From a virus (Duplodnaviria; Heunggongvirae; Uroviricota; Caudoviricetes), in the IMG/VR virus record IMGVR_UViG_3300031857_000009: a DNA stretch of 64,000 nt; one strand, 5' to 3'. A program made the position numbers and the translations under genes. Positions 1 through 60,456 of this stretch are shown piece after piece (positions within the stretch are counted from its first letter, which is position 1; each line of letters starts with the position of its first letter). The notes beneath the pieces were generated by a model. That model made no database searches. It was not told the DNA's origin and was given only the letters and a program-made list of their open reading frames with translations.

Positions 1-129
1 GTTCGATACAATCCACGAGTTCAACCCAACTGGTTATTCGATGGTCACATCATGGACAATGATGGAGTACCACAATTGCACACCATCGATTACGGAGTGT
101 ACATCACGACAGGTGAAGGTGAAATTTAG
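1..129 (+). CDS. C-terminal fragment of hypothetical protein (5' end outside window)
   Basis: Frame 1 is open from position 1 and ends ...TTGEGEI*. The stop TAG at 127-129 lies inside an ATTTAGTTTGGC box. Confidence 0.4.
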   Translation, partial: VRYNPRVQPNWLFDGHIMDNDGVPQLHTIDYGVYITTGEGEI

Positions 130-150
130 TTTGGCCTAAAATAAAACAAC

Positions 151-627
151 ATGGACTTAATTAAAGCACAACGGTTAGCAGAGAAGTTAATTCACAAACA
201 CAAGTTAGATGTTAAGGGGTGGACATTTGCGTATGACAATGCAAAAAGTAGGTTTGGGTGTTGTAAATACAGACCTAAACAAATTACACTATCCAAAGTA
301 TTGACATTACTTAATGATGAAAGTCATGTAAAGAATACTATTCTACATGAGATTGCACACGCACTTTGTCCTGGTCAAAAACATAACCATGTATGGAGGT
401 CGAAAGCGATTGAAATAGGTTGTGATGGACATCGTTGTTATAGTAGTAAAGTAGTTGAAACACCCGAAGCAAAATATATTGCAACATGTGTTGGTTGTGG
501 TAAGGTATCCAAAGCCCATCGTTTAAGAAGTAGGTCTTATTCATGTAGCAATTGTTCGGGTGGTAGTTACAACCCAAAGTACAAATTGGAGTTCAGACCA
601 AACCCCATATTCACAGGGGGGATTTAG
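151..627 (+). CDS. SprT-like zinc metalloprotease with C-terminal Cys-rich zinc ribbon
   Basis: HEIAH (HExxH) followed by GQKHNHVW, then CxxC...CxxC. The stop TAG sits within the ATTTAGTTTGGC box. Confidence 0.55.
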   Translation: MDLIKAQRLAEKLIHKHKLDVKGWTFAYDNAKSRFGCCKYRPKQITLSKVLTLLNDESHVKNTILHEIAHALCPGQKHNHVWRSKAIEIGCDGHRCYSSKVVETPEAKYIATCVGCGKVSKAHRLRSRSYSCSNCSGGSYNPKYKLEFRPNPIFTGGI

Positions 628-690
628 TTTGGCGACAAAGTTGAAAAAAAATTTGGTATAAAAGAAAAATTGTTATATCTTTGTAATACA
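622..690 (+). promoter_or_regulatory. Repeated promoter cassette copy 1 (ATTTAGTTTGGC box + TTTG-N20-TATCTTTG)
   Basis: Box at 622-633, -33 TTTG at 652-655, -7 TATCTTTG at 676-683, ATG at 707. Matches the Bacteroidota sigmaA consensus TTTG-N19-21-TAnnTTTG. Confidence 0.6.
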
Positions 691-706
691 ATTAAATTAA
701 AAAAGT

Positions 707-1297
707 ATGGGATACACAACCGATTTCGAAGGTGGATTTGAATTCAGTCGTCCACTTACTAGTGATGAAAAGAATTACATCACCAAGTTCAACAACACTC
801 GTAGAATGAAACGAAATGTTGAGAAACTCTATGAGTTATTTAAGGGTGAACACGGAAACCCTTTTCTACCAAAAGAAGAAACCTACGGAAACGATGGTGA
901 ATACTTTGTTGGTGGTAATGGGTTCGCAGGTCAAGACAAGGATGATAGTATTGTCGATTACAATACACCTCCAGGTCAACTAGATTTTCTAACAACTAAC
1001 TACAACGAAAGGTGGACACAAAATGATTTGAGAACACGAGAGGGTAAATGTCAACCTGGTTTATGGTGTCAGTGGACTACGGATGAAAATGGAACTCATC
1101 TAATATGGGATGGTGGTGAGAAGTTTTACAACTACGTTGAGTGGTTGAAATATATCATCAATCATTTCTTTGAGAAGTGGGGTGTGAAATTAAATGGTGA
1201 GGTTTATTGGAAAGGCGAGGATGGTGAGGACATGGGTAAGATTGTTGTAAAGGACAACTGGGTCACAGTAAAATACGCGAGGATTACTTATGATTGA
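707..1297 (+). CDS. hypothetical protein
   Basis: 196 aa ORF directly downstream of promoter cassette 1, followed by a hairpin-T terminator. Confidence 0.5.
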   Translation: MGYTTDFEGGFEFSRPLTSDEKNYITKFNNTRRMKRNVEKLYELFKGEHGNPFLPKEETYGNDGEYFVGGNGFAGQDKDDSIVDYNTPPGQLDFLTTNYNERWTQNDLRTREGKCQPGLWCQWTTDENGTHLIWDGGEKFYNYVEWLKYIINHFFEKWGVKLNGEVYWKGEDGEDMGKIVVKDNWVTVKYARITYD

Positions 1298-1314
1298 TTG
1301 GTTTAAGGAGAGAA

Positions 1315-1338
1315 CCCCACAGAAATGTGGGGTTTTTT
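1315..1338 (+). terminator. rho-independent terminator
   Basis: CCCCACAGAAATGTGGGG hairpin followed by TTTTTTAT. Confidence 0.6.
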
Positions 1339-1378
1339 ATTAAAAACCTCGTACACATATATTATGGGATGGACATTG

Positions 1379-1445
1379 ATTTAGGTTGGCAACAAAGTTG
1401 AAAATAAATTTGGTATAAAAGAAAAATTGTTATATCTTTGTATTA
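1379..1445 (+). promoter_or_regulatory. Repeated promoter cassette copy 2
   Basis: ATTTAGGTTGGC at 1379-1390, TTTG at 1409-1412, TATCTTTG at 1433-1440, ATG at 1461. Near-identical to copies 1 and 3. Confidence 0.6.
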
Positions 1446-1460
1446 CTAAAACATTTTATT

Positions 1461-1772
1461 ATGTACAAGAAAAAAATTCAAGACCTACAAGAGGAAATAA
1501 TCAAAAAAATTAAAAACAAATGTTCGACCATTATTGGTGAGAACCAACAAATCACATTTAGAAATGTGTTTGGAGTTTGGGTTACCGAAGGTATGTACGA
1601 AGATGATGGTAGAGTTCAATACGCGGCGTATGGAATATTACCTGATGGTACTGTGATGTCGGAAAGTTTTGGTGATAGTATAGAACTCTCGTTAGTTGAA
1701 TTGGACATATATGAACTCGCACACATCATAGACATCCTTGAGTCGGATGACTTTACCGTCGAGGACATTTAG
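1461..1772 (+). CDS. hypothetical protein
   Basis: 103 aa ORF. It ends ...EDI* with the TAG inside the box of cassette 3. Confidence 0.5.
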   Translation: MYKKKIQDLQEEIIKKIKNKCSTIIGENQQITFRNVFGVWVTEGMYEDDGRVQYAAYGILPDGTVMSESFGDSIELSLVELDIYELAHIIDILESDDFTVEDI

Positions 1773-1830
1773 TTTGGCAACAAAGTTGAAAATAAATTTG
1801 GTATAAAAGAAAAATTGTTATATCTTTGTA
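1767..1830 (+). promoter_or_regulatory. Repeated promoter cassette copy 3
   Basis: ATTTAGTTTGGC at 1767-1778, TTTG at 1797-1800, TATCTTTG at 1821-1828, ATG at 1833. Confidence 0.6.
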
Positions 1831-1832
1831 TT

Positions 1833-2135
1833 ATGAAAAAAGAAAAAGTAATCCACTCGGTATCATCTCACTTGAGAGATAAGTCATATGAGATGAGAAT
1901 TATTCAAAATGAGAATAATGTCAAATTGAAAATGACCTACGAAGCGTACAACGCACAAGAAAGGTTTACAGGTGAACAATTCATCAATGGTAAATGGGAA
2001 CACACATTTGGAATGTTGGATTTGGGTGTTCTACCTGATAAGTCAATCTACGTGTGTAGTGAAGGAAAAAGAGAAGATAAGGCCGAAAAGTTATTTGGTC
2101 TTGGTACAAAATTGTTTAACATCTTAAATCAATAA
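1833..2135 (+). CDS. hypothetical protein
   Basis: The track ORF begins at a TTG at 1815 that lies inside the -7 box. The first ATG is at 1833 (MKKEKVIHS...), which gives a short leader typical of Bacteroidota. Confidence 0.5.
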   Translation: MKKEKVIHSVSSHLRDKSYEMRIIQNENNVKLKMTYEAYNAQERFTGEQFINGKWEHTFGMLDLGVLPDKSIYVCSEGKREDKAEKLFGLGTKLFNILNQ

Positions 2136-2139
2136 TACA

Positions 2140-2685
2140 ATGGGATTAGACATGTATCTCAAGAAGAAAACCTATGTGAAAAATTGGTCACATATGGAAC
2201 CCGAACAACTTCACAAGGTGACAGTTAAGAAGGGTGGGAAAGTAGTTAAGGAAATTCAACCCGACAGAATTTCATCCATCGAGGAACAGGTGGCGTATTG
2301 GAGAAAGGACAACCACATCCACGCATGGTTTGTAAACAATGTACAGGACGGTGAGGACGATTGTGGTGAGTATTATGTAGACCGCGAAAAACTCAAAGAG
2401 TTGGTGGATACCTGTGGGAAAGTTAGAGCAACCCTGAAAAATTCTCCGACGAAGAAGGTTCAGGTGAAAGTTGGTTGGCAAGGTGGTAAGGAATTGTATG
2501 AGGACATCGATGTCTACACCGACACCGAACTTGCGGAAGAACTACTACCAACCCAAGCAGGTTTCTTTTTCGGGGGAACTGAATATGATGAGTGGTATCT
2601 AAAAGGTTTAGAAGATACCATCAAACAAATCACTCCCTTATTAGAGGAAAAGGAAGGAGATTTCTACTACCAATCATCCTGGTAA
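2140..2685 (+). CDS. hypothetical protein
   Basis: 181 aa ORF, tightly packed after the previous gene. Confidence 0.5.
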   Translation: MGLDMYLKKKTYVKNWSHMEPEQLHKVTVKKGGKVVKEIQPDRISSIEEQVAYWRKDNHIHAWFVNNVQDGEDDCGEYYVDREKLKELVDTCGKVRATLKNSPTKKVQVKVGWQGGKELYEDIDVYTDTELAEELLPTQAGFFFGGTEYDEWYLKGLEDTIKQITPLLEEKEGDFYYQSSW

Positions 2686-2768
2686 AAAAATAAAAAGAGG
2701 ATATCGTTTGGTAAAATGGTATCCTCTTTATACCTTTGTATTAATGAACAGCTTAAAATAGATAGATT

Positions 2769-3383
2769 ATGCCGAACTGGTGTCAAAACTCAATAACAAT
2801 AACAGGTACTGAAGAGCAGATTGGTTTGCTCACTCGTATCCTTAATGATGTTCCAAAGTCCGAACCTGAAAAGTGTATCGTGTTTGAGTCCTTAATCGGT
2901 CGTGAACCTGAAATTAGTAAAGAAGAATACGAACAAGGTGGATGGTATAATGCAAACACCAGTTGGTATGGTACCAAATGGGATGTGTCATACGCCGACT
3001 GCAACTTCACTTTTGAGAAGGATGTTATCTATATGTCACCTGATACGGCGTGGTCACCACCAATAAACTTTGGTGTTGTATTACACAAGATGTATGGTGT
3101 GGATGTGGAGTTGTTCTACTCGGAGGGTGGAAGTGATTTCTGTGGCAAAACAACCATTAATCAAAACGGAGTGGTTGAGGATGATTATGGTTATCTCGAA
3201 GGTAACTATCGTTTTGACGAAGAATACTTTTGGGAATCCCTTTTCCAAAATGAGATGGAATATGCAATCGATAACGAAACTAGTGTTGATGACTTCGTTG
3301 CACAATTCCCTTATGTGGATACGGAAGACGCAAAAGAAATCCGTAGAATATACGAAGAAGAACTAAAGGAAAAAGTAAAATAA
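2769..3383 (+). CDS. hypothetical protein (MPNWC N-terminus)
   Basis: 204 aa ORF. The shadow ORFs on both strands here are shorter. Confidence 0.5.
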   Translation: MPNWCQNSITITGTEEQIGLLTRILNDVPKSEPEKCIVFESLIGREPEISKEEYEQGGWYNANTSWYGTKWDVSYADCNFTFEKDVIYMSPDTAWSPPINFGVVLHKMYGVDVELFYSEGGSDFCGKTTINQNGVVEDDYGYLEGNYRFDEEYFWESLFQNEMEYAIDNETSVDDFVAQFPYVDTEDAKEIRRIYEEELKEKVK

Positions 3384-3389
3384 ATTCAT

Positions 3390-3650
3390 ATGGAAGATTT
3401 GAAAATATTATCGACAGCAGAACCTCAAGAAGAATTAACCTACCAAGAATGGGTAGACGCATTGAGAACTCAAGAGAATGTCATTGTTTCATCCAAATAC
3501 CACGCAAGAACCATCGAGCAACGGATTAAAGTTGATGAAGCAATTCAAATGAAAAGAGAAATGGAAAACTCTGAAGTAAAATTTTCCGACGGGACAGCCG
3601 AACCCCGAATTTTGTTTGGCATGTTAAAATCTGTATTAAACTTCTTTTAA
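3390..3650 (+). CDS. hypothetical protein
   Basis: 86 aa ORF. A box variant ATTTTGTTTGGC lies near its 3' end. Confidence 0.4.
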   Translation: MEDLKILSTAEPQEELTYQEWVDALRTQENVIVSSKYHARTIEQRIKVDEAIQMKREMENSEVKFSDGTAEPRILFGMLKSVLNFF

Positions 3651-3655
3651 AGATT

Positions 3656-4135
3656 ATGGGACGAGTAAATAAAACAATCGAGGGTGTCTTCATTGACATC
3701 GTAGGGTCAAAGAGTGAACTGAGTTCATATGACCAATTCATCAACCACGGTGATGGTAAGAAATATTCTAAGGAGCTTAAAGAGCTCACTGGTTTATATA
3801 AGAACTTAATCACTGAGAGTAAATTAACATTCGAAAAACTAGCATCACTCGAGGAGATTATAATCCAAATGAGAATTCGTGAGGACCTCAGTGATATCAA
3901 GTTGACTCAAGTTCGTGAGTACATCTACGCAAGGACTCCTTTCTACCGTAAGGATAAGAAGTCAAAAGATGTCCGTGTTATTGTCGACAAGATTGAGTTT
4001 CACCCTGAGGAGGATTTGGAGATTTTGTCTGGCGACAAGGAGTTCATGACCAAAGCCAAGATGAAGTTAGCTCAGGCTATGGACCTCGAGATTGAGGAAA
4101 ACATCCGAGTATTCAAATCAACATTTAAAAAGTAG
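3656..4135 (+). CDS. hypothetical protein
   Basis: 159 aa ORF. Confidence 0.45.
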   Translation: MGRVNKTIEGVFIDIVGSKSELSSYDQFINHGDGKKYSKELKELTGLYKNLITESKLTFEKLASLEEIIIQMRIREDLSDIKLTQVREYIYARTPFYRKDKKSKDVRVIVDKIEFHPEEDLEILSGDKEFMTKAKMKLAQAMDLEIEENIRVFKSTFKK

Positions 4136-4139
4136 AGGT

Positions 4140-4439
4140 ATGAAAACAGAAACAATTTCAACAGGTATTGGACTCTCAATTTACAAAGGTGATTGGGATG
4201 GAGCACAGTGGACACTTACTGGTTTCCCTAAAAAAGAAGCAATTGGTCACGACTACGACTCTGCCTATGACTTCGAGGACTGTGTCAAGAGAAACATCAA
4301 TTGTAGTGGAATCGATTTTGACAGTGAGTATTGTCAGTTCTACGCATACGCAAAGACCAAAGCTCGTTTGGTGAGTTTTGCAAACCAAATCAAGAAACAC
4401 TTTGAGAAAGCAAAGCAACTGAAGGAGGAGATGTACTGA
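4140..4439 (+). CDS. hypothetical protein
   Basis: The first ATG after the upstream stop is at 4140 (MKTETIST...). The track extends to 4092 by overlapping the previous gene. Confidence 0.45.
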   Translation: MKTETISTGIGLSIYKGDWDGAQWTLTGFPKKEAIGHDYDSAYDFEDCVKRNINCSGIDFDSEYCQFYAYAKTKARLVSFANQIKKHFEKAKQLKEEMY

Positions 4440-4530
4440 ATTTAGATTGGCAAAAATATTCTAGAAAAATTTGGAATATTCTAGTAAATGTATTAATTTT
4501 GAATATAGAACATTAAAAATCAATAGGTGT

Positions 4531-5133
4531 ATGACAAACAAAATCAAATTAGGAACTGAGGTCGTAGTATCCGACCCTTGTTACACAATCCCAACCTGGT
4601 GTCAGGGAATTGTTAGTGGTGTTAAACCCGGTATGTATGACACCTATGTTAAGCGTCACGACTGTGGTGATTGGGGTATCCGAAGTTCAATGATACTTGT
4701 CATACACGAGGACCATAAAGACGACAAACTGGTTTGGAAAGATTATCCTGCAACCATCGGTGTCGACTCAGGTCAGTGTGGAATCTTCTCCAAAGAATCT
4801 TACCGTGACGACTCTATTACAGAACGAATCGGTTTGGGAGATGGTGACATTTCATTCTTTGGTGTAACACCTTGGAAAGAAATGACCGAGGCCCGTGAGG
4901 AAGAACAAGGTGAAAAATGGTACATCAGTATGTGTTCTCGTACCTTGGGTGATAGTCGATACGGTGTGTATGACGAGGGAGTAGTTTCTTCATCTGGTTT
5001 TGGTGATGGTTCTTACACATTATATGTTGCAAAGAAAAGAGGAAAGATTATTGCAATGTGTGTTGACTTCGCGGTGGAGGAAGACGAAGTAATTGATTTT
5101 GAATTTTTTCGTGATATCCATATTGAGAAGTAA
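4531..5133 (+). CDS. hypothetical protein
   Basis: Probable start is the ATG at 4531 (MTNKIKLG...). It is preceded by TTTG-N20-TAATTTTG at about 4471-4501. The track starts further upstream. Confidence 0.5.
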   Translation: MTNKIKLGTEVVVSDPCYTIPTWCQGIVSGVKPGMYDTYVKRHDCGDWGIRSSMILVIHEDHKDDKLVWKDYPATIGVDSGQCGIFSKESYRDDSITERIGLGDGDISFFGVTPWKEMTEAREEEQGEKWYISMCSRTLGDSRYGVYDEGVVSSSGFGDGSYTLYVAKKRGKIIAMCVDFAVEEDEVIDFEFFRDIHIEK

Positions 5134-5157
5134 TAAATTTTATTTAGATTTGGAGTT

Positions 5158-5448
5158 ATGAAAAAAATATTATTTATATCAGCACTTGGATTAGTTGGTT
5201 GTGGAACCAATCGAACATATATCCAACACGGGGACAAGGCATTAGTAAGTGGACACAAAGTTTACTTTATCGATTGCAACATAACCCGAGAAGTAATTAA
5301 ACCCCAATGGGATAAAGGTTCATATGGTGATACCATGAAGGTATACTTAGTGGATACACTGACATTTATGAATATGTGTAGAAAAGCATCACCATGTGGA
5401 TGTTCACCAGCAGGAACAACCGCAAATAAAACTGTAACAAAAACTTAG
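5158..5448 (+). CDS. putative lipoprotein
   Basis: N-terminal MKKILFISALGLVGCG lipobox signal peptide. Confidence 0.55.
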   Translation: MKKILFISALGLVGCGTNRTYIQHGDKALVSGHKVYFIDCNITREVIKPQWDKGSYGDTMKVYLVDTLTFMNMCRKASPCGCSPAGTTANKTVTKT

Positions 5449-5452
5449 TATT

Positions 5453-5914
5453 ATGTTCAATACACAGAAACCTCAAGAACCGATTCACATATTCACCCCA
5501 TCTCAGTGGTTGAATATTGGTTGGCTGGCCATGGTACCAGCAACTTACTTCGTACACCCATATGCATGTGCATTGGCGGTAGTCATCTATATCTACAAAT
5601 ATTTCGAAGTAGATTGTTGGAGGTATGAATTCTATGATGACTGTGTAATTGAACGAAAAGGGGTCTTCAGTGTGACTCGAGAATCTGTGAACTATTTCAG
5701 GATTAAATCTGTAATGGTCGACGAACCATTTTGGATGAGATTACTTGGACTGTCTGTTGTTCGAGTTATTACTTCAGAGCAATTTAAACAGCAACTAATA
5801 TTTCAAGCCGTACCACACGGTGAAGGTATTCAAGCGTTTTTACAGCACAACGCAAGAGTGGAGAGACAAAATATGGGAATTAGGGATTTTGATGTATTCA
5901 ATACTCACCTGTAG
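5453..5914 (+). CDS. membrane protein with bacterial PH-like (bPH_2/YdbT-like) domain
   Basis: Two N-terminal hydrophobic helices followed by a YFRIK...VVRV segment resembling bPH_2. Confidence 0.45.
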   Translation: MFNTQKPQEPIHIFTPSQWLNIGWLAMVPATYFVHPYACALAVVIYIYKYFEVDCWRYEFYDDCVIERKGVFSVTRESVNYFRIKSVMVDEPFWMRLLGLSVVRVITSEQFKQQLIFQAVPHGEGIQAFLQHNARVERQNMGIRDFDVFNTHL

Positions 5915-6083
5915 CAATATTTAAAGTCATGATAGTAGTAGAACCACGGATTCAGGAACAGTTCATGAGGATAGCAATGGCTAGACTTAATAAGAAATAT
6001 TGTTTTAAACCTCAAAGGTTAGCAATGGCGGCCAAGATGTTTTCACAATATTTGCAACGTTTGGAAGAAAGGGGGAAGAGTAA

Positions 6084-6404
6084 ATGAAACTCTTCATCAG
6101 GGACAAGGTATACTTCACGGACCCTACCACAGGTGAAATAATAGAAGACACCATTACCGACGTTAATGACAACGTAGTGATGGGAAAGAAATTCAACTTG
6201 ACTGATTTATATTGGAAGGGTGAGTTAAACGTATATAGGTTAGAGTGTCACATATGTGGATTCAGTATACCAGCACCTCTATCGCAATTTCAGGTAGATG
6301 GAATAAAAGGTAAGCAGCAATTATTACCATCCACATGTGGTGTATGTTTAGAAGAGTCACGGTACCCTGATAACCCTGAGGAGGGAATCATACTGTGGAT
6401 TTAG
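6084..6404 (+). CDS. hypothetical protein
   Basis: 106 aa ORF. It ends LWI* with the TAG in the ATTTAGTTTGGC box at 6399-6410. Confidence 0.45.
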   Translation: MKLFIRDKVYFTDPTTGEIIEDTITDVNDNVVMGKKFNLTDLYWKGELNVYRLECHICGFSIPAPLSQFQVDGIKGKQQLLPSTCGVCLEESRYPDNPEEGIILWI

Positions 6405-6493
6405 TTTGGCATTAGTTCTTTGAAAGATTTTTTTATAGGATTTGGTTTTTAGGATTTTCTTGTGTATATTTTATATATCAAAATCAATATATT

Positions 6494-6763
6494 ATGGCAA
6501 CAAAGAAGTCCACAACTAAAAAACCCGCCAGCAAACCAGCGGCGAAACCAGCTCCAGCCCCCAAAAAGGGTGGGAAGAAAGCAGTAGCAGCTCCGGCTAT
6601 GAAAACAACCGTAAGTACTTACGTACCTGTTTCACACCACATCTACTATGATGGTTTCTCTTACCGTGTACGTGCTAGCGTTAACGGAACCCGTTACTCT
6701 CAGAACTTCTCCTCCAAGAAGAAAGCTTTCGAGTTCCGTAAGAGTATCTTGAGTAATATGTAA
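6494..6763 (+). CDS. lysine/alanine/proline-rich DNA-binding protein (histone H1-like tail + AP2-like fold)
   Basis: N-terminus is KKPASKPAAKPAPAPKKGGKK. C-terminus YRVRASVNGTRYSQNFSSKKKAFEF resembles AP2/integrase-type DNA-binding modules. Followed by a strong terminator. Confidence 0.5.
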   Translation: MATKKSTTKKPASKPAAKPAPAPKKGGKKAVAAPAMKTTVSTYVPVSHHIYYDGFSYRVRASVNGTRYSQNFSSKKKAFEFRKSILSNM

Positions 6764-6780
6764 TAGACGACTCAAGTCTC

Positions 6781-6811
6781 TTAACCAAATCCTGTGATTA
6801 ACGTCACGGGA
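6781..6811 (+). terminator. rho-independent terminator
   Basis: CCTGTGATTAACGTCACGGG hairpin followed by ATTTTTTTTTT. Confidence 0.6.
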
Positions 6812-6839
6812 TTTTTTTTTTAATGAGAATCCTGACGAC

Positions 6840-7030
6840 GGGACCTGAGATGGTCAATTTAGTTTGGCGGAAAGGTTGTTTAGACAATTGATGTTGTAAC
6901 AATAAATCCACCGATTTAGTTTGGCGGAATCAGAATCCTCAGAATCGTCCGACGGTACCGATTTTGTTTGGCACAAACTAACTAACACTTGTTAGTTCAG
7001 GGACCTGAGGAGGTCGATTTAGTTTGGCGG
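6840..7030 (+). repeat. Intergenic array of four ATTTAGTTTGGC-type boxes flanked by a ~30 bp direct repeat
   Basis: Boxes at 6857-6868, 6914-6925, 6961-6972 (variant) and 7017-7028. GGGACCTGAGATGGTCAATTTAGTTTGGCGG at 6840-6870 matches GGGACCTGAGGAGGTCGATTTAGTTTGGCGG at 7000-7030. Confidence 0.55.
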
Positions 7031-7034
7031 GGGA

Positions 7035-7853
7035 ATGGTATTTATATGTAAAGTAAATGAGATGATTAAACTAACAGAAACTTTAGAAGGTGATGATGTC
7101 CAAAAGTTTCACGACGCTTTACCACAAATAGGTGACTCACTTAAAGGACTGACCGATGGGACCATTACAATAAAATATGTTGTAGCTGAAGACCCAACCC
7201 AAGGAACAATAGATGGTGTCCCTTTTATAAGTGAATGTCTATTGAAACTATTTGTTGATGTTAACAGGGTTTATCCTGAGATGATTAATGACATCTACAT
7301 TTTGGTTGGCAGAAAAATTCAAGAGATTGGGTTCGGTGAATTTCCGTTCAAGTTAAGTATAAGGTCACTTCACCTTATTAACGGACCTTTAATTATTGAT
7401 TTATTAGAAGAATCGTTTGACAGAAATTATACCAATCACCTCAGGTATGATAATCCAACAATACAGTACATTTTGTCTGGCCAATATTCCCTTGTATTAC
7501 CTCAAGATGTATTACCTAAGTTTTTTGACCAAATGGATGAGTGGATAAAAATTTTAATAAAGAGAGCGACGGTGTATTACACCGTATATAAAAAAGGAAA
7601 GATAGATGACCATGAGTATGAACTCGTAGACAACCCAGTTATTAGAGTTGTGGTACGCGGGAAAAAAGATATAAAAAATGAAAAAGATTTAATTCCGTTC
7701 ATTGATTCAAAATTTAAAACCATAGATGGTATCGAAAAAGGTAGTCCCGATTTCCCCTATAACTTACAAGATAATATTATTGATAAGTTAGAAAAAAAGT
7801 TCAGGGAGAAACACAACGTAAGAATTTTTATTGACGACACGAGACGTGTATGA
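7035..7853 (+). CDS. hypothetical protein
   Basis: 272 aa ORF. An alternative start ATG at 7062 is possible. Confidence 0.45.
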   Translation: MVFICKVNEMIKLTETLEGDDVQKFHDALPQIGDSLKGLTDGTITIKYVVAEDPTQGTIDGVPFISECLLKLFVDVNRVYPEMINDIYILVGRKIQEIGFGEFPFKLSIRSLHLINGPLIIDLLEESFDRNYTNHLRYDNPTIQYILSGQYSLVLPQDVLPKFFDQMDEWIKILIKRATVYYTVYKKGKIDDHEYELVDNPVIRVVVRGKKDIKNEKDLIPFIDSKFKTIDGIEKGSPDFPYNLQDNIIDKLEKKFREKHNVRIFIDDTRRV

Positions 7854-7875
7854 CATATATACGTATATACATTAA

Positions 7876-7904
7876 CCCCCTTGTATGACACTTGGGGGTT
7901 TTTT
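7876..7904 (+). terminator. rho-independent terminator ending the plus-strand early block
   Basis: CCCCCTTGTATGACACTTGGGGG followed by TTTTTTAT. Confidence 0.6.
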
Positions 7905-8436
7905 ATTTACATCTGTTTTTCTGAAAATATAAAAATATAACTCTTATTTCGAACAAGGGTCAATCCCCTACTATGTCCCACAATTTCCCACTTTAATCCA
8001 CTTTTATGGATTGTAATACGACCAGCGGGATTTCTTGTCATACATTCGTATATATCTGAGAAAAATTCCTTACGACAAAAAATGTCTGGATTACAGGGTT
8101 AAAATCAAGGGTTTTTTAACTCTTTCTGTATTACATTAGGGGTATCGTGGGTCAAAATCCTATCACTACTGTACATCCAAACAGAGGGTAAACCACTATA
8201 ATGACATACCTGTTTTTCTCTCTCTTCAACCAGTTTCTTCTTAACCGATTCGTCAAAATAAACCCCATCAGATTCCATATCCGAGAGTGGTCTGTACAGT
8301 ATAAATTTTTTCATATAGATGTAACAACTATGGTTTCAAATTGTTTAAACCGATGTGGGTCTACCGCAGTAAACCATACTTTCTACCTTCTGTTTTTTTA
8401 ACCACCAAAGGTGGTTCATTAACTTTTTAATATACT

Positions 8437-8688
8437 TCATTTGTTATCCCTTATTATTCTTGTGATGATGTTTATGAAACCATTTAGGTTAGACATATTA
8501 TTAATAACCAAATCCAATTCCCATACATGAACATTCCAGTGTTCATCTTTAACCATGTCACTATCATCTGAAGTTAGATTAACATTATCTATATCCAAAT
8601 TATAATAGTACCATGGTTCTGTTTGTCCTTCAAGATTCCCTTCAACCTTTTCAAAACCCAAATCAATTAAATTCTGTTCTGTAATCAT
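8437..8688 (-). CDS. hypothetical protein
   Basis: 83 aa ORF, the first gene of the minus block. Confidence 0.4.
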   Translation of the reverse strand: MITEQNLIDLGFEKVEGNLEGQTEPWYYYNLDIDNVNLTSDDSDMVKDEHWNVHVWELDLVINNMSNLNGFINIITRIIRDNK

Positions 8689-9053
8689 AACGTAATATGT
8701 TTTTTTATTATATCCATTATTTCTCTTGTGAGACTACCAGCGGTTTTTGTTCCATCAATATTCCAACGAATAATCAATTCTTCTATAGAACCATATAGAA
8801 TGTTCTCTGTGTTCTTAATCCTCGCGTGTGGAACATCTTCCCCGTTTACACATTCTTCACCTTCCTTTTCCACAAATACAGGAATGATATCAAAATCAAC
8901 CATAGTATATTCCTTTAGTATATGACCATGATTCTTTACATCACCAGGGTGTAATGGGATTATTCCAATTTGGGTTGAATCGGTGGATGAGTTTATTTCA
9001 TCATACCATCTTACCATCCAATTATTATTTTCTTTATACAGTATTCCTTTCAT
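8685..9053 (-). CDS. hypothetical protein
   Basis: 122 aa ORF with a 4-nt overlap with its neighbour. Confidence 0.45.
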   Translation of the reverse strand: MKGILYKENNNWMVRWYDEINSSTDSTQIGIIPLHPGDVKNHGHILKEYTMVDFDIIPVFVEKEGEECVNGEDVPHARIKNTENILYGSIEELIIRWNIDGTKTAGSLTREIMDIIKKHITL

Positions 9054-34073: not shown

Positions 34074-35267
34074 TTATTTGACCACTTTTTGAACTATTCG
34101 ACTCACCAATTTATTTTTTATTGATTCGTTAAGTTCATTTTGGTTTGGACCCCCAACTTGGTATCTTTTTACTGTTGCGCTTTTAAGATTGTCTTTTGGA
34201 TTTAATGATAAAATCTGTGTTTTTAAATCATTAATAACTTCCATTAACGCATCCACAACTTGTTTATCGTTCATTACCGTATAATTATCATTGAATGTTG
34301 TTCCAGGTCTAAGTTGTGCGGTTGCAGATGATTGAATTAATTTATCATCGAGAAACCCACCTTTTAATCCACTTTCGCTTTCAAGTTTTTTACCTAACTT
34401 GGTTTGAGCTCTAGCGGTCCACGCAAAACTATTTTCACCAATTAATTCTCCTTTAAGTTCAAAATCCATTCTAACTGTAACGTCTATGTTTTTTTCCTCA
34501 AGACCATATGCGTCTAACATATATTTTGGTGTTTTACCAGCATATTGTTTCAACATTTTTTTGTCTGCTCTCCAGTTATTGTAATTTTTATTGTACTGAC
34601 GAGCCATATAAAATGTTTTCATTTCATCAGTATCTTTACCCTGAACTCGAGCCACTGCCGATAATAAAAAATCCCTTACTGTTGGGTAAGCATTATAGTT
34701 ATGTGTTGAGTATTCAATTAATTGATTTGTAAATTTACCATATTGGTCGACATTCTTTCTATCTCTAGCAACCACAGCAGGAATACTTCTTTTGTTAAGT
34801 TCTTGAACAAACGATTCGTCTTCAAAAGTATTTGCAATGATTGTGAATAGTCTTCTCTTAATTGTTTCTTGTTCTTTATATGTGTCACCTGTGGGTTTAT
34901 ATCCACCCTCAACATATTTTTCAATAGGTCTATGGTACTTTCCTCTCTTACAAGCGGCTAATTGTGGTTCTAAATTGTGGAGTTCTTTGATTTTTTCTAA
35001 GAATTCTTTGTTTGCATTTTTAAACGCTTCAAGTTCCTGACAATCTAATGGTACCACTAATATCTCACCACCCTCTTGTAAGGTGGGGTTTGCAATCCAA
35101 TAATCAGGGATATCTGTGTCATTATCTTCTTTGAAGAAAGGTTTATATTTTACTAGTTTACCTTTGTCATCCCTGACACCCTTTTGTTTGTATGCCATTT
35201 CCTCCACATCAGAGATATAAGATTCAGAAATGATACGTCTTAAATATTTTTCGGTTAATTTATCCAT
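34074..35267 (-). CDS. hypothetical protein
   Basis: 397 aa ORF with its own terminator. No motif recognised. Confidence 0.5.
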   Translation of the reverse strand: MDKLTEKYLRRIISESYISDVEEMAYKQKGVRDDKGKLVKYKPFFKEDNDTDIPDYWIANPTLQEGGEILVVPLDCQELEAFKNANKEFLEKIKELHNLEPQLAACKRGKYHRPIEKYVEGGYKPTGDTYKEQETIKRRLFTIIANTFEDESFVQELNKRSIPAVVARDRKNVDQYGKFTNQLIEYSTHNYNAYPTVRDFLLSAVARVQGKDTDEMKTFYMARQYNKNYNNWRADKKMLKQYAGKTPKYMLDAYGLEEKNIDVTVRMDFELKGELIGENSFAWTARAQTKLGKKLESESGLKGGFLDDKLIQSSATAQLRPGTTFNDNYTVMNDKQVVDALMEVINDLKTQILSLNPKDNLKSATVKRYQVGGPNQNELNESIKNKLVSRIVQKVVK

Positions 35268-35310
35268 AGAAATAATTCTTTACATATAAATACAACCAAA
35301 AACAGAATTG

Positions 35311-45395: not shown

Positions 45396-46721
45396 TTAAT
45401 TACTTAAGGGTGCTTTAATCGATGGGTGTGATTGATAATTTTCGATTTGAAAATCCTTATTTTCCAAATGAGTTATTAAAGATGAGTCTTCAGATAATGA
45501 TTTATAAAATTCATCGGTCTTCATATGTTTTAGTTTGGGTAATTTATAAGGTTCTCTTGTGTATCGTGGTATTTTATATATCTCATAATATTCAGACATA
45601 CCTCCACCAAATGGTGCTAAGTCTTTCAACGCACTTTTATAACCATTAGGACCCATCGCCTCTTTTAACATACCTTCTCTCTCTTCATGTGTATACTTTC
45701 TACCGATTTGTTCTCTTGCTTGTTCAACATGGTTACTATACAAATGAGTATCACCTAAATTACCAATCAACTCATCAGGTACCATATTTACTTCTTTAGC
45801 AATAATCTCAAGTAACAAACCGTAAGAAGCAATATTGAATGGTAGACCTAAGAATGTGTCTACTGAGCGTTGATTCCACATTAAAGAGATTGCTCGTTTA
45901 GGAACTCTTAAACTATCCATGTGAACATCGTGATAATCACTACTTTGATTTAAAGGGTCTTTTGTTGAGTTATAATAATTAATCCTTTCATCTAAACTCA
46001 ACTCTCTCGTATAAACTTGAAATCCATAATGACAAGGTGGAAGAACCATTTGGTCCAGCTCTCCAACATTCCAAGCATTGACCATTAATCGTCTTGAGTC
46101 TGGATTTGTTTTAAGGTCGTTGATTAGGTTTGTGATTTGGTCTATTGAATTGTTTTGGTATTCTATTTTGACACCATACTTGGTAACATCTTCACCGATT
46201 TCAATTGCTTTTAGTACTCTGTGTTGGTCAGAACCTTTTACATCCTTTAAGTCGTAATTAGTCACATTCTTTCTACCCCATCTTCTCCATTGCTTACCAT
46301 ACACAGGTCCGAGGTCACCCCACTTCTTAGCAAACTCATCATCGGTTTTTATTTTGTTGATGAATTCTTCTTTTGTTAATCGAAATCCTAACTCTAACAT
46401 TTTTTCTTTTGACATATTAGGTAAGATTTTGGCATCTTCAATTAGATAGTTCTTATACGCATCACCATCCCAAATATGACAATTGTTATCAACAAGGAAC
46501 TTGATGTTTGTATCACCACGAAGGAACCATAACAATTCGGTTACCATCGTCTTCCACGCCATTTTCTTGGTTGTAAGTAATGGAAACCCATCGGACATTT
46601 TATGACGGATTGTATAACCAAAAATAGATTTGGTTCCTGTACCTGTACGGTCTTTCTTTTCTACCCCATAATCTATAATAGTTTGGAGTAAGTCTGTGTA
46701 TTGTTTATCTAATTTGTTCAT
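45396..46721 (-). CDS. thyA: thymidylate synthase (ThyA) homologue with large insertions
   Basis: RTGTGTKSIFG, LLWFLRGDTN, DLGPVYGKQWR, MVLPPCH (catalytic Cys), LGLPFNIASYGLL and GDTHLYSNH match ThyA. At 441 aa it is about 150 aa longer than canonical ThyA. Confidence 0.8.
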   Translation of the reverse strand: MNKLDKQYTDLLQTIIDYGVEKKDRTGTGTKSIFGYTIRHKMSDGFPLLTTKKMAWKTMVTELLWFLRGDTNIKFLVDNNCHIWDGDAYKNYLIEDAKILPNMSKEKMLELGFRLTKEEFINKIKTDDEFAKKWGDLGPVYGKQWRRWGRKNVTNYDLKDVKGSDQHRVLKAIEIGEDVTKYGVKIEYQNNSIDQITNLINDLKTNPDSRRLMVNAWNVGELDQMVLPPCHYGFQVYTRELSLDERINYYNSTKDPLNQSSDYHDVHMDSLRVPKRAISLMWNQRSVDTFLGLPFNIASYGLLLEIIAKEVNMVPDELIGNLGDTHLYSNHVEQAREQIGRKYTHEEREGMLKEAMGPNGYKSALKDLAPFGGGMSEYYEIYKIPRYTREPYKLPKLKHMKTDEFYKSLSEDSSLITHLENKDFQIENYQSHPSIKAPLSN

Positions 46722-52215: not shown

Positions 52216-53673
52216 ATGATTACAATAGGTTACAGTACAAGAGAGTCCAACCCAAAATTTCAAGAATATTTAAAAAAAACTTGTGGACACCCCAAAGTTC
52301 AAGTTATTGAAAAAGTAAACAATGGTGAAAAAAGTCTTTCACAAACTTACAATGAAATTATTCAAGAGTCGATTCATGATATTGTCGTACTTTGTCATGA
52401 TGACATTTACTTTAATACGACTTCGTGGGGTAGAAAATTAGTCAAACATTTTGAAGAATCTGACTACGGGATTCTCGGTGTTGCCGGTACAACCAATATT
52501 CATGAGAGTGGTAGGTGGTGGACAGATAATACCAAAATGGTTGGTATTGTTAATCATGAAAATGAGGGTAAAAAATGGGAATCGAGATATGCAAATGGAA
52601 TCCCAAATTCAATTCACGAAGTTTGTTTAGTGGATGGTTTATTCATTGGAATCCACAAAAACAGAATAAAACACACTTTTGATGAGTCAGTACCGGGTTT
52701 TCATTTTTATGATATGGTATTCTGTACTAGCAATCACTTAAGTGAGGTAAACATCGGTGTTATATACAACATAAGAATCACTCACAAATCAATCGGAATG
52801 ACCAATGATTCTTGGGAAAAGAATAGGGAATTTTACATTGAAAAATTTAAAGAGAACCTACCAATTAATATAACACCAAAAATTGATTATGACATAACCA
52901 AACCAAAACAGTTTAAAGATAAATTTAATTTAATAGTTCAAACATCAAACGATAATGAAAATTTAATTCAGTTTTTTGAAAACATAAAAAAATTACCAGT
53001 GTTTGATAGTTTACAGATTTCACTCATCTCGACGGATACCAATATAGACAATATTAGAGAATTTGAATCTGAAAATATTAAAATTTACGAGGGTTTTTTT
53101 GATACATTAAATAAAAACTTATCAGTACTGAAATGGGATGAATCGTTTATGGAATCAAAAACAGATTTGTTATTTTTCAGTAATGATACTGTTACCGTAT
53201 TGAACGACGTTTTCTCAAGTATGTATTCAATATTTAAGAGTGAAAAAAATACTTTTGGGTGCGTCTTTCCTACAGTATTAGAAAACGACCGAACAATTTT
53301 TTCAAATGGATTGGATATAGTTCAAAACAACGAACAGTTCAATTTAATTTTTAAAAACAAATCATCTTTTTTCAATATTTTACACGGACACTTTCCAAAC
53401 AATTTTGGTAGTATTAGTGACTTTTTTGCCACTACATCTACAAATTTAAAAATGATTGATTGGTTTGATATTAATTTAGAAACATCAATTTATAACTTAG
53501 ATTTTGCGTTGAAAACTTTACTTAAAAAACGTAAAACATTCATTGACACAAACAGTGTGGTAATGATTGATATGGCATCAAAATTTGAAAAGGTTGATGT
53601 TGAATTAAAACAAGTCTTAGGTCAGTACATAAACTCACCTGAAATTAGAAAAAATATCAAACAATTAAGATGA
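52216..53673 (+). CDS. glycosyltransferase (GT-A/GT2-like N-terminal domain) with C-terminal extension
   Basis: IGYSTRESN...VVLCHDDIYF resembles the GT2 N-terminus. It is the first gene of an overlapping operon. Confidence 0.45.
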   Translation: MITIGYSTRESNPKFQEYLKKTCGHPKVQVIEKVNNGEKSLSQTYNEIIQESIHDIVVLCHDDIYFNTTSWGRKLVKHFEESDYGILGVAGTTNIHESGRWWTDNTKMVGIVNHENEGKKWESRYANGIPNSIHEVCLVDGLFIGIHKNRIKHTFDESVPGFHFYDMVFCTSNHLSEVNIGVIYNIRITHKSIGMTNDSWEKNREFYIEKFKENLPINITPKIDYDITKPKQFKDKFNLIVQTSNDNENLIQFFENIKKLPVFDSLQISLISTDTNIDNIREFESENIKIYEGFFDTLNKNLSVLKWDESFMESKTDLLFFSNDTVTVLNDVFSSMYSIFKSEKNTFGCVFPTVLENDRTIFSNGLDIVQNNEQFNLIFKNKSSFFNILHGHFPNNFGSISDFFATTSTNLKMIDWFDINLETSIYNLDFALKTLLKKRKTFIDTNSVVMIDMASKFEKVDVELKQVLGQYINSPEIRKNIKQLR

Positions 53674-54449
53674 TAAAAATTGTATCGGGATTTACAGAAA
53701 AAGGTGGTTCTACCACTTTTTTTATAAACTTAACAAATTTCTTAAATGAAAATGGTATTGATTGCACATTTTACGGTAATCAGAATTACCATTTAGACAA
53801 ATGTAAATCAGGGAACATTGAAAAAGATTTAAAGTATGAATCTGATGATATTGTAATTACCCATTTTTTACAACTACAGGAAAGACCACCTGTTAAAAAA
53901 GTTATTTTGTCTTGTCATGAAAAATGGTGGTTCCCTGTTGGTAAAATTAAACAGTATTGGGACCTGTGCGTGTTTTTACATGAAGAGCATCGAAAATATC
54001 ACTCGGATTACAGGGGTGATTATGTAATAATACCAAACATCAAAGAAAATTTAATTATTTCAAATAAAGAGCTGGTAAGAAATATTGCAGGAATTATTGG
54101 TACAATTGAAGACAGAAAACAGACCCATGTGTCAATACAAAGAGCATTAAAAGACAGGTGTGAAAAAATCTATTTGTTCGGTCACATCGGTGACCAAAAC
54201 TATTTTGACAAATTGGTAAAACCTTTAATGAATCCAAGAGTAATTCATTACGGTCACACCACCAATAAACAAGAAATGTACGATATGATTGGTAAGGTAT
54301 ATCACTCATCAAAGGGTGAGGTTGCTTGTTTGGTTAAAGATGAATGTTATTTAACCGGTACAGAGTTTTATGGTAATGAAGAGACTATGAATGAAGTTTC
54401 TAAATTAAGTAACGAAGAGATATTAACACTTTGGAAAAACATATTTTAA
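53670..54449 (+). CDS. putative GT-B glycosyltransferase
   Basis: C-terminal SSKGEVACLVKDECYLTGTE resembles the GT4 E-x7-E region. There is a 4-nt overlap with the upstream gene. Confidence 0.35.
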   Translation: MIKIVSGFTEKGGSTTFFINLTNFLNENGIDCTFYGNQNYHLDKCKSGNIEKDLKYESDDIVITHFLQLQERPPVKKVILSCHEKWWFPVGKIKQYWDLCVFLHEEHRKYHSDYRGDYVIIPNIKENLIISNKELVRNIAGIIGTIEDRKQTHVSIQRALKDRCEKIYLFGHIGDQNYFDKLVKPLMNPRVIHYGHTTNKQEMYDMIGKVYHSSKGEVACLVKDECYLTGTEFYGNEETMNEVSKLSNEEILTLWKNIF

Positions 54450-54450
54450 A

Positions 54451-55173
54451 ATGAAGATACACGCACATATACTGTCATGGAATGAAGAAAAAATATTACC
54501 ATTCACATTGGATTACTATAGTACAATCTGTGAAAAAATATTCATATACGATAATATGTCAACGGACTCCTCTGATGAGATTTATAAGAGGTACCCAAAA
54601 GTTGAGGTTATTAAATGGGATAGTGGTAATGAAATAAATGAAATTAATTACGTAAACATTAAATCCGAAGAGTATAAAAAAAGAAGTAGAGGTCAGGGTG
54701 TTGATTGGGTTATAGTTTGTGACTGTGATGAGTTTATATACCATGAAAATCTTATGGATAAACTTCAAGAGTACAAAGAAATGGGTATAACCGTCCCAAG
54801 AATAGACGGTCACGACATGGTTAGTACTGAATTTCCAATATACGACGGTGAATTCATTACAACAAAAATTAAAACAGGTTCACAAACGTATGAACCAATG
54901 TGTAAAAATATAATTTTTCATCCTGATTTAGATATAAAATACGGCATTGGTGGTCACAGTTTTAATTCTGTTGATGGTAAATTTTCGGATGAGCGGGAAA
55001 TAAAACTTCTTCACTATAAATTCTTGGGTAAAGACTACGTGAAGAACATTTACATTTCAAGAGCAAAGAGATTGTCATCGTTCAATAAACAACATAAATT
55101 CGGTGAACATTATTTTAATTTACCATTCAATTACATGGACAGCATGTTAAAAGAAAATTATCAAGTTATATGA
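54451..55173 (+). CDS. GT-A glycosyltransferase
   Basis: IFIYDNMSTDSSDEI and a CDCDE DxD motif. Confidence 0.5.
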   Translation: MKIHAHILSWNEEKILPFTLDYYSTICEKIFIYDNMSTDSSDEIYKRYPKVEVIKWDSGNEINEINYVNIKSEEYKKRSRGQGVDWVIVCDCDEFIYHENLMDKLQEYKEMGITVPRIDGHDMVSTEFPIYDGEFITTKIKTGSQTYEPMCKNIIFHPDLDIKYGIGGHSFNSVDGKFSDEREIKLLHYKFLGKDYVKNIYISRAKRLSSFNKQHKFGEHYFNLPFNYMDSMLKENYQVI

Positions 55174-58417: not shown

Positions 58418-58423
58418 TTCAGT

Positions 58424-59014: not shown

Positions 59015-59025
59015 AAATTATAAAA

Positions 59026-60454: not shown

Positions 60455-60456
60455 TA

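Follow-up and report, generated by a model that had tools for sequence, protein, structure and literature searches.

An oriented, lineage-specific 12-base box borders host-type promoter cassettes in a small-gene block of uncultured phages

CRP sites lie at -41.5, -61.5, -71.5 and -82.5 relative to the transcription start, and the site of the phage P2 activator Ogr lies near -55. Ogr and protein p4 of phi29 are among the phage activators, which are phage-encoded. Middle promoters of phage T4 combine a MotA box at -30 with a -10 element, and promoters of the T7 type lie at or inside the 3' ends of upstream open reading frames (ORFs). The primary sigma factor of Bacteroidetes recognises a -33/-7 consensus of TTTG/TANNTTTG, in which the T of TAnnTTTG is placed at -12 (PMC6847099). 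Promoters used by the host RNA polymerase in the crAss-like Cellulophaga phage phi14:2 consist of an A-rich stretch, TTG, ~19-20 nt and TAnnTTTGTA; they drive middle genes, and the early genes, which have no detectable common motif, are transcribed by a virion polymerase (bioRxiv 10.1101/2020.03.07.982082). In T4-type phages, the repeated intergenic early-promoter stem-loop cassettes known as PeSLs contain the breakpoints of gene indels and replacements (Arbiol et al. 2010, PMC2839356; Comeau et al. 2014, PMC4122927), and PmSLs are mentioned in the latter paper. Here we describe a 12-base box that recurs in a 64,000-nucleotide stretch of the uncultured phage record IMGVR_UViG_3300031857_000009 (Caudoviricetes), the whole of which is referred to as the window, and compare the cassettes that carry the box with these systems.

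The exact 12-mer, ATTTAGTTTGGC, occurs seven times in the window (124, 622, 1767, 6399, 6857, 6914 and 7017), always on the plus strand, against 0.01 copies expected, and a count of seven was reached in none of 100 shuffles. Copies with one mismatch begin at 1379, 3609, 4440 and 6961, and the relaxed pattern ATTT[AT]G[ATG]TTGGC adds 7299, which gives 12 copies, all on the plus strand and all between 124 and 7310. A sequence-only reading of this DNA had proposed at least 11 copies, which was borne out, as were the positions it gave, except that the variant it placed at 3608 begins at 3609. No copy with up to one mismatch was found in the remaining 57 kb (8-64 kb), where matches with two mismatches fall on both strands at chance level. 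Overall, the two-mismatch search gave 28 matches against 9.7 expected, with the surplus confined to the first 7.5 kb. Two of these matches, at 4022 and 7470, are probably genuine members of the box family, since they share a CCTGAGG-type arm upstream and the position of the first is kept in relatives. The first 7.9 kb form a block of small plus-strand genes, and the genes from ~8.1 to 51.6 kb lie on the minus strand; the strong over-representation is restricted to that one plus-strand block and shows a strong strand and position bias, which favours the sequence-only reading by its own refuting criterion. A box-like ATTTAGATTTGGA at 5142-5154, 3 nt before the ATG at 5158, contains one additional T and is possibly a decayed copy.

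A logo built from 68 non-redundant box instances reads R-ATTTWGTTTGGC-R, with ~24 nt of GC-enriched sequence without positional consensus on the 5' side and A-rich sequence on the 3' side; a purine follows the box in 54 of the 68. Nearly every intergenic region of the block presents the same order of elements: a canonical terminator (at the looser junctions), a GC-rich arm of ~40 nt, the box, an A-rich tract, ATTTGGAWTATA (-33), ~20 nt, TTATATTTGTA (-7) and ATG. The A-rich tract separates the box from the -33 element in all cassettes; some of the boxes are degenerate, e.g. TTGTTTGGC or TTGATTGGC. Tight junctions have no terminator, and there the upstream ORF extends right to the box. Promoters of the form TTTG-N20-TA(T/A)(C/A/T)TTTG were located at 652-683, 1409-1440, 1797-1828 and 4470-4501. 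TTTG-N19-21-TAnnTTTG recurs before genes of the window, and sigma-70-type promoters are not enriched. Because these recurrent -33/-7 promoters match both the primary-sigma consensus of Bacteroidetes and the host-RNA-polymerase promoters of phi14:2, we infer that the host is a member of the Bacteroidetes.

Box and promoter are coupled. In the early blocks of the window's own lineage (lineage A), a same-strand box lies upstream of 40 of the 56 strong host-type promoters, and none of the six strong host-type promoters of the minus-strand block has a box or a GC arm. The gap from the box to the T of TAnnTTTG was measured in bases for 82 non-redundant box-promoter pairs, pooled from six lineages with differing boxes and spacer sequences. 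The gaps obtained were 31-36, 41-46, 52-56 and 64 nt, with one at 67, and no pair fell at 25-30, 37-40, 47-51 or 57-63 nt; the resultant length was R=0.73 at a period of 10.5 nt. The main class places 18 nt between the box and the -33 TTTG and 42 nt between the box and the -7 element, and the other classes lie one helical turn apart. Box 6399 stands 54 nt from its -7 element, one turn beyond the main class, and the gaps of one orthologous promoter pair (33 vs 42) differ by 9-10 nt. Because the -7 element starts at -12 (PMC6847099), the box centres fall near -50.5, -60.5, -71.5 and -82.5 relative to the predicted start sites, and spacing classes with empty gaps between them, counted from those sites, are what a site on one face of the helix gives. 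The distance from box to ATG showed no preferred classes. The claim that a non-random, strand-specific signal stands at gene 3' ends at a fixed spacing to the next promoter is supported by these measurements.

Relatives were gathered with the box itself, with homologs of an AP2-like protein encoded at 6494-6763 and with a DUF932 gene; a search for related loci with the protein encoded at 7062-7853 returned none. All of the retrieved relatives share synteny, and each carries a different, internally homogeneous box at homologous places, with 10-30 boxes per 15-20 kb that are mostly co-oriented with the genes. The versions are ATTTWGTTTGGC in lineage A, ATTTWGTCTGGA in lineages B and F, ATTTTGCTGGGC in C, ATTATGACCGGC in D (with ACT, AAC and AAT variants and ATTTTGACTGGC), ATTTTGTGTGGC in E, ATTTTAATCGGCAAA in G, ATTTTTATCCGCAAA in H, TGTACTGGAATT in I and ATTTACTGGGGTA in J. 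The same places in related phages may thus be occupied by, for example, ATTTAGTCTGGA, ATTATGACCGGC, ATTTTAATCGGC or TGTACTGGAA, and intermediate forms between lineages were seen. Since the plus-strand block of the relatives starts ~6 kb upstream of the DUF932 gene, at a divergent junction, the box-bearing block should measure ~24 kb in the window's lineage. A scan of 185,579 species genomes for box plus promoter gave 35 scattered single hits, many of them coding or in unrelated phyla, and yielded no multi-copy genome and no prophage copy. As only scattered single hits were obtained in genomes, the element belongs to phages and is not a general host motif.

Tentatively, and with a confidence that stops somewhat short of even, we interpret the box as an orientation-dependent DNA site that would be read by a probably phage-encoded factor acting on early promoters of the host RNA polymerase. 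The abutment to the A-tract, the quantised spacing, the association with one promoter class only, the inverted pairs and the arrays speak for this interpretation, and a putative regulator binding site is the option of the sequence-only reading that fits best; nothing was found in support of a homing or packaging site. Binding by a protein, its contact with RNA polymerase and the direction of its effect are what we infer beyond these patterns. Host RNA polymerase would transcribe the small-gene block, as the core promoters are of the Bacteroidetes primary-sigma type, and the box forms the upstream edge of a repeated, movable early-promoter cassette. At its quantised distance it would have the geometry of a class-I-type upstream activator or regulator site; before the last gene of the block, where it would lie near -28, the arrangement would be that of class II or of a T4 Mot box. 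The reader might boost, time or shut off early transcription. It is most likely phage-encoded, because each lineage has its own homogeneous box and no such system was found in bacterial genomes. Being near-identical repeats, the cassettes would double as recombination substrates by which gene cassettes are moved, deleted and inserted.

Several observations weigh against a regulator site of this kind. The core promoters are near-consensus, and a need for an activator is not expected of them. A 42-nt unit of A-tract plus promoter is preceded in composite cassettes by a GC arm and not by a box, and the quantised spacing may in part count whole phased A-tract units rather than reflect contact between box and polymerase. 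In lineages B and D, a distance of 73-110 nt, with no clear phasing, separates most boxes from the promoter downstream. No host-type promoter is in reach of the boxes at 124, 3609 and 4022 or of the array at 6857-7028. The orphan boxes at gene 3656-4135 recur in all lineages examined: the homolog of this gene follows a lineage's own box by 13-35 nt and contains a second one, whose position varies and which in lineage D was made by an insertion of 4-5 codons. Such recurrence suggests that the orphan boxes at this gene are not accidental. Variation of the box between lineages could be concerted evolution of repeats instead of co-evolution with a reader. Finally, neither of two candidate readers is convincing: the AP2-like protein fails to co-vary with the box, and the model of the 3656-4135 protein gave no informative fold match.

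The orphan boxes fit better with a second interpretation, which we hold to be doubtful but well worth weighing, namely that the box itself is a promoter, or the key element of one, for phage-specified transcription, whether by a phage RNA polymerase or by a gp55- or Mot-like factor on the host polymerase. Most early genes would then gain a second promoter in tandem with the host-type one. This would account for the frequency of about one co-oriented box per gene, for the location of boxes at or inside the 3' end of the upstream ORF, for the purine that usually follows the box and for the existence of lineage-specific versions. It would also account for conserved orphan boxes so close to start codons that there is no room for -33 and -7 elements, for the gain of internal boxes at different sites of the same gene across lineages, for the tandem arrays, and for gene 7062-7853, which stands behind a strong terminator with only boxes upstream. 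However, neither the quantised spacing nor the abutment to a host-type A-tract would be expected of an independent promoter, inverted partners 4-36 nt away would be convergent promoters, and no conserved -10-like element stands at a fixed distance downstream. In addition, no RNA polymerase gene was found among the ORFs of the window (Pfam, PHROGs) or the called genes of related loci, and no sigma gene in the window or most related loci, a search that covered ~84 of the 194 kb of this genome's contig. The lone exception is L155, where a full-length sigma-70-family gene (Pfam regions 1.2 and 2) lies in the early block at 6475-7368; this factor was rejected as a general reader, since no homolog was found in the window or the other loci searched.

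Known promoter elements were also considered for the box and rejected. A sigma-54 promoter (TGGCAC-N5-TTGC) does not fit, in that TTGA follows the box in three repeat copies only and GC in none of the copies, all of which were read. As a Bacteroidetes -7 element (TAnnTTTG) the box reads TA-G-TTTG or TTTGTTTG, and the boxes of other lineages have no TTTG. A role as the -33 element is ruled out by the spacings and by the boxes of other lineages.

The array at 6857-7028 lies between the strong terminator and gene 7062-7853, and before each of its boxes stands a GC-rich arm that often takes the form of a short hairpin (e.g. GACCT-gagg-AGGTC). Arrays of 2-4 boxes adjoin the AP2-like gene and the last gene of the block, and in L110 an array precedes the host-type promoter of the AP2-like gene. 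GANTC, GGWCC and CCTNAGG are modestly enriched near boxes, mostly owing to related array units. In several relatives the last gene is preceded by a box, 8-10 nt and TATTTATA, which would place the box near -28, and TATTTATATGTAAAG at 7039-7053 of the window is possibly a -7-like element with the box at about -28. This 15-mer occurs twice in the window, at 7039-7053 (+) and 35278-35292 (-), in both cases with a start codon 8-10 nt downstream (genes 7062-7853 and 34074-35267), and may represent a second type of promoter or leader. TATTTATWWNTAAAG was tried as a general motif and dropped, as it is not enriched apart from one exact second copy.

The sequence-only reading had named the lysine-rich AP2-like protein as a possible binder of the box. 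The fold agrees with the proposal: a three-stranded sheet is packed on a C-terminal helix, similar to solved AP2 and integrase arm-binding domains. Co-variation does not. Lineages D, I and J have near-identical AP2-like domains and quite different boxes, L155 combines an A-like domain with a B-type box, and different domains also pair with the same box. A correlation between an 'HH' residue pair in strand beta-1 and the box was discarded, as L152 has HH with a B-type box. Because near-identical domains pair with different boxes, and given the exceptions L155 and L152, the AP2-like protein is unlikely to be the box-specific reader; it may bind a lineage-independent palindrome or DNA without sequence preference. 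The protein encoded at 3656-4135 was considered as a possible autoregulated reader, and no DNA-binding fold could be made out in its model.

An imperfect inverted partner lies 4-36 nt after some boxes in all lineages, although most boxes are solitary. The loop of such a pair often holds the lineage-independent palindrome GTAT(T/G)ACA, and long versions hold a core resembling the IHF consensus. Composite elements of ~60 nt, found in both orientations between GCTGCTGGTTGCGC-like repeats, join a box, ATTCTGTAAAnnnAATAAAATCAAnACTTT (which matches the IHF consensus WATCAANNNNTTR) and a reverse box in which a T/G mismatch is conserved. In the window, GTATGACA / GTATTACA (palindrome TGTAnTACA) occurs at 7848-7855 and 7883-7890 (+) and at 8036-8043 (-), in the convergent region between the gene blocks, and it is also found in the loops of many inverted box pairs in all lineages (L001 130, L146, L230, L224). 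A conserved protein, perhaps the AP2-like one, may use it as an operator.

Several proteins of the block end in ...I*, and the sequence-only reading had drawn attention to the use of the box's TAG as the stop codon of the upstream ORF in at least five cases. This was found in four (124, 622, 1767 and 6399); at 4440, a TGA stop adjoins the box. The box start lies at -5, -5, -5, -5 and +1 relative to the end of the stop codon in the window and at 0 to +18 in relatives. The plus-strand block continues leftward beyond the window for at least 10 kb (locus L001) with six further boxes, all plus and intergenic; the boxes of this locus are mostly ATTTTGTTTGGC, which lacks TAG, and the ATTTTG variant is as frequent as the TAG form. 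Relatives whose box contains TAG have genes that stop 8-13 nt before it, and the boxes of other relatives contain no stop codon at all. An inserted gene in L109 again stops at a box TAG. Because L001 boxes are mostly TAG-less and the genes of relatives end before the box, the TAG is not part of the signal. Its use as a stop is best regarded as an incidental by-product of tight gene packing, with ORFs running up to a constrained box, so that in annotation the '...I*' protein ends and the box TAG should be taken as consequences of packing and as no signal in themselves.

The GC-rich arm followed by a T-rich box raises the question of whether the two form a weak or backup intrinsic terminator, or an insulator against read-through before each promoter. 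We consider this improbable. The 32 nt upstream of boxes do fold slightly better than shuffled sequence (mean -5.3 vs -4.1 kcal/mol, p=0.0013), of 40 hairpins at or below a dG of -4, 25 reach to within 0-3 nt of the box, and a terminator scan marks 7002-7015 and its tail. For a minority of copies, a good hairpin does have the T-rich half of the box as its U-tract, most clearly at L017 6257, L001 9487-9530 and L001 1760-1800. The mean z-score, however, is only -0.59, and the combination of hairpin and U-tract is not general to the copies: the tight junctions at 622, 1767, 4440 and 6399 have only weak hairpins within coding sequence. Many boxes already lie ~40 nt past a strong canonical terminator (1315-1338, 6787-6824 and most intergenic regions of L001), and conserved boxes are found inside genes, where termination would be harmful. 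Termination also leaves the invariant GGC unexplained, and the boxes of other lineages, e.g. ATTATGACCGGC and TGTACTGGAA, are not U-rich. The earlier statement that the box is not a hairpin terminator holds for most copies but not for that minority.

Comparison with relatives showed that genes have been gained and lost between the cassettes. Gene 1461-1772 is missing in L109 and L076, where one hybrid repeat is left, and in L110 both genes between the three 70-nt repeats (707-1772) are missing and a single hybrid repeat remains, with a homolog of gene 1461-1772 now behind the 4440-type cassette. L109 has an extra small gene just before the 4440-type box, relatives carry insertions on either side of the 4440 cassette, and array copy numbers vary. 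The breakpoints of these cassette indels fall inside the box+promoter repeats. On this evidence the box might have no regulatory reader and be merely the most conserved part of concertedly evolving shuffling repeats, maintained through PeSL-like homologous recombination or attC-like site-specific recombination. Boxes that are homogeneous within a genome and divergent between lineages, with intermediates, would follow, as would the relocation of cassettes and the imperfect inverted pairs that mark cassette borders in every lineage, their mismatches conserved and their loops variable. We nevertheless regard the proposal as unlikely. An identity of 12 bases is little for homologous recombination to act on, and the box is invariant amid diverging flanks; the breakpoints do not coincide exactly with the box (the segment duplicated in L109 takes in 39 nt upstream of it); solitary boxes predominate; no integrase or recombinase was seen near the block; and the strict orientation and fixed position relative to promoters point to a direct function.

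A more specific variant is a long shot, namely that the inverted pairs (box, short loop that often holds GTAT(T/G)ACA, mismatched reverse box) are integron-like recombination sites for cassette exchange, of which single boxes would be half-sites. If so, these phages could gather accessory or anti-defence genes, each along with its promoter, and rearrange them in a site-specific manner. A true integron attC site was rejected: GTTTGGC matches six of the seven positions of the GTTRRRY core, but only a minority of boxes are paired, the arms come in the opposite order and none of the loci showed an integrase.

The slimmest chance is given to an action of the box in RNA, as a cleavage site for an RNase E-like or phage endoribonuclease or as an antisense target, by which early transcripts would be controlled gene by gene. 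The boxes are strand-specific, number one per gene and are tolerated inside genes, all of which is in keeping with this, and inverted partners would yield anti-box RNA. RNase E prefers RN↓WUU, and R-A↓UUU at the 5' edge of the box resembles this preference. Yet many boxes occupy the gap from a strong terminator to the following promoter, which yields little RNA, a quantised distance to DNA promoter elements has no rationale at the RNA level, and start codons stand at no preferred distance. No Rfam match was obtained, and no credible family in 1-9000.

The window lies in a metagenomic contig of 194,260 bp, and a freshwater contig from the Joint Genome Institute (JGI) carries the same DNA; the records are ENA ERZ27248034 k141_2322868 and JGI Ga0315907_10000567. 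No match to a phage reference collection was found by megablast with 1-8000 or by tblastn with a 611-aa protein. The gene content, which includes a UvrD-like helicase, a thymidylate synthase, a DNA methylase, an endolysin-like protein and many proteins without known function, fits a large phage. Relatives lie on contigs of 150-315 kb, the largest being the 315,312-bp contig JACCEA011465770.1 of L207 (proteins P0157 and P0151), and with contigs of this size the phage group probably includes jumbo phages. The thymidylate synthase ORF at 45396-46721 (-) encodes 441 aa, within which the Pfam model matched in two stretches spanning residues 6-344, so the enzyme apparently contains an insertion as well as an extension. 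A run of ~13 genes on one strand at 52216-63267 (+), each encoding 200-480 aa and among them genes for a glycosyltransferase, a UDP-GlcNAc 2-epimerase and an FkbM-type methyltransferase, resembles a polysaccharide-synthesis cluster within the phage genome. GATC is absent from the window, against ~200 sites expected from a rough base-composition estimate, which suggests strong restriction avoidance. Lineage B and D relatives have many GATC sites in the arms beside their boxes, and a gene for a D12-class (Dam-like) methyltransferase lies at 15312-16220 of L146. ARAGORN made two tRNA-like calls with a four-base anticodon (tcac) in long intergenic regions of the early block of L146 (6381-6458 and 9436-9513); no tRNA genes were found in the window. 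The features of the box-bearing block are collected in Table 1.

Table 1. Boxes, promoters, terminators and associated genes of the plus-strand block, with composite elements of two loci
Feature	Position	Strand	Details
Exact box	124..135	+	TAG 127-129 stops upstream ORF; next ATG 15 nt downstream; no host-type promoter between (orphan)
Box+promoter repeat, copy 1 (~70 nt)	622..694	+	Box 622-633; TAG stops ORF 151-627
Promoter of copy 1	TTTG 652-655; TATCTTTG 676-683	+	After A-rich tract
Intrinsic terminator CCCCAC-agaaat-GTGGGG-TTTTTT	1315..1338	+	40 nt upstream of box 1379
Repeat copy 2	1379..1451	+	Variant ATTTAGGTTGGC, A-tract, TTTG 1409, TATCTTTG 1433-1440; cassette-indel breakpoint relative to relatives
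Repeat copy 3	1767..1839	+	TAG stops ORF 1461-1772; A-tract, TTTG 1797, TATCTTTG 1821-1828; cassette-indel breakpoint
Orphan box variant ATTTTGTTTGGC	3609..3620	+	In 3' end of ORF 3390-3650; 35 nt before ATG of 3656-4135
Conserved gene	3656..4135	+	In all lineages; bracketed by boxes, one just upstream, one internal
Box-like ATTTTGTCTGGC	4022..4033	+	Within gene 3656-4135; CCTGAGGAGG directly before
Cassette with box variant ATTTAGATTGGC	4440..4501	+	Abuts TGA of ORF 4140-4439; A-rich spacer, TTTG 4470, TAATTTTG 4494-4501
Box and promoter of AP2-like gene	6399..6472	+	TAG stops ORF 6084-6404; TTTG 6441, TATATTTT 6465-6472
AP2-like gene, small basic protein	6494..6763	+	C-terminal AP2/integrase-arm-like domain; position next to box arrays conserved
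Strong intrinsic terminator	6787..6824	+	After AP2-like gene
Four-box array	6857..7028	+	Boxes 6857, 6914, 6961, 7017; spacings 57, 47, 56 nt
TATTTATATGTAAAG	7039..7053	+	10 nt after last box, 8 nt before ATG 7062
Last gene of plus-strand block	7062..7853	+	Start 7062 inferred from relatives; box-like sequences at 7299 and 7470, significance uncertain
~60-nt composite elements	L001 4001-4071, 8668-8739, ~1210-1270; L085 1459-1520, 6165-6235, 10353-10424		

If the box is indeed a regulator site read by a phage-encoded factor, uncultured phages that are widespread in freshwater and marine habitats would run their early genes from host-type promoters furnished with a private address label. The label would diversify rapidly between lineages and travel with the promoter during gene shuffling, and the PeSL idea would extend beyond T4-like phages to another host phylum, with a specificity element added. 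The at least 10 box versions define a search for a phage protein whose DNA-binding surface tracks them, and the cassettes offer compact, strong and portable promoter modules for Bacteroidetes genetics.

No description of the box system was found in the literature that could be searched, and the 11-mer matched unrelated primers only. The closest described systems each share part of the arrangement. Like PeSLs, the cassettes combine a strong promoter for the host sigma factor with an AT-rich region upstream of it, many of them behind a stem-loop terminator; they are concentrated among small genes of no known function, differ slightly between phage groups, and have the indels and replacements between relatives break inside them. 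Unlike PeSLs, their promoters are of the Bacteroidetes -33/-7 type, the phage shows no T4-like sign, and a strictly conserved, oriented 12-mer is added between the stem-loop or GC arm and the AT-rich tract; this box varies as a unit between lineages and also occurs alone, arrayed or in inverted pairs, which has no described PeSL counterpart. As no T4 core gene was noticed in scans of the window, PeSLs are to be seen as analogues and not homologues. With class I and class II activator sites the box shares its place upstream on one helix face, its steps of a helical turn and some sites near -30, but here the core promoters are near-consensus, the box is asymmetric and in a single orientation, and orphan sites stand without promoters. 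T4 MotA-dependent and T7-type promoters likewise depend on a short phage-specific motif that is co-oriented with genes, often lies in or at the end of the preceding gene, is sometimes in tandem with host-type early promoters and differs in specificity between related phages. In contrast to those promoters, the box has no conserved -10-like partner at a set distance, with the possible exception of TATTTATA ahead of the last gene, a complete host-type promoter stands in phase with most boxes, and no phage polymerase or Mot/Asi-like gene was identified. The phi14:2 promoters upstream of g070, g075, g108 and g110 match the core promoters of the window, but those 'tripartite' promoters have no box-like element upstream. 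The cassette principle, from PeSLs, and the geometry of upstream activators are thus already known, while the additional oriented 12-mer, its fast lineage-specific diversification across large uncultured phages and its Bacteroidetes-type promoter context appear to be new.

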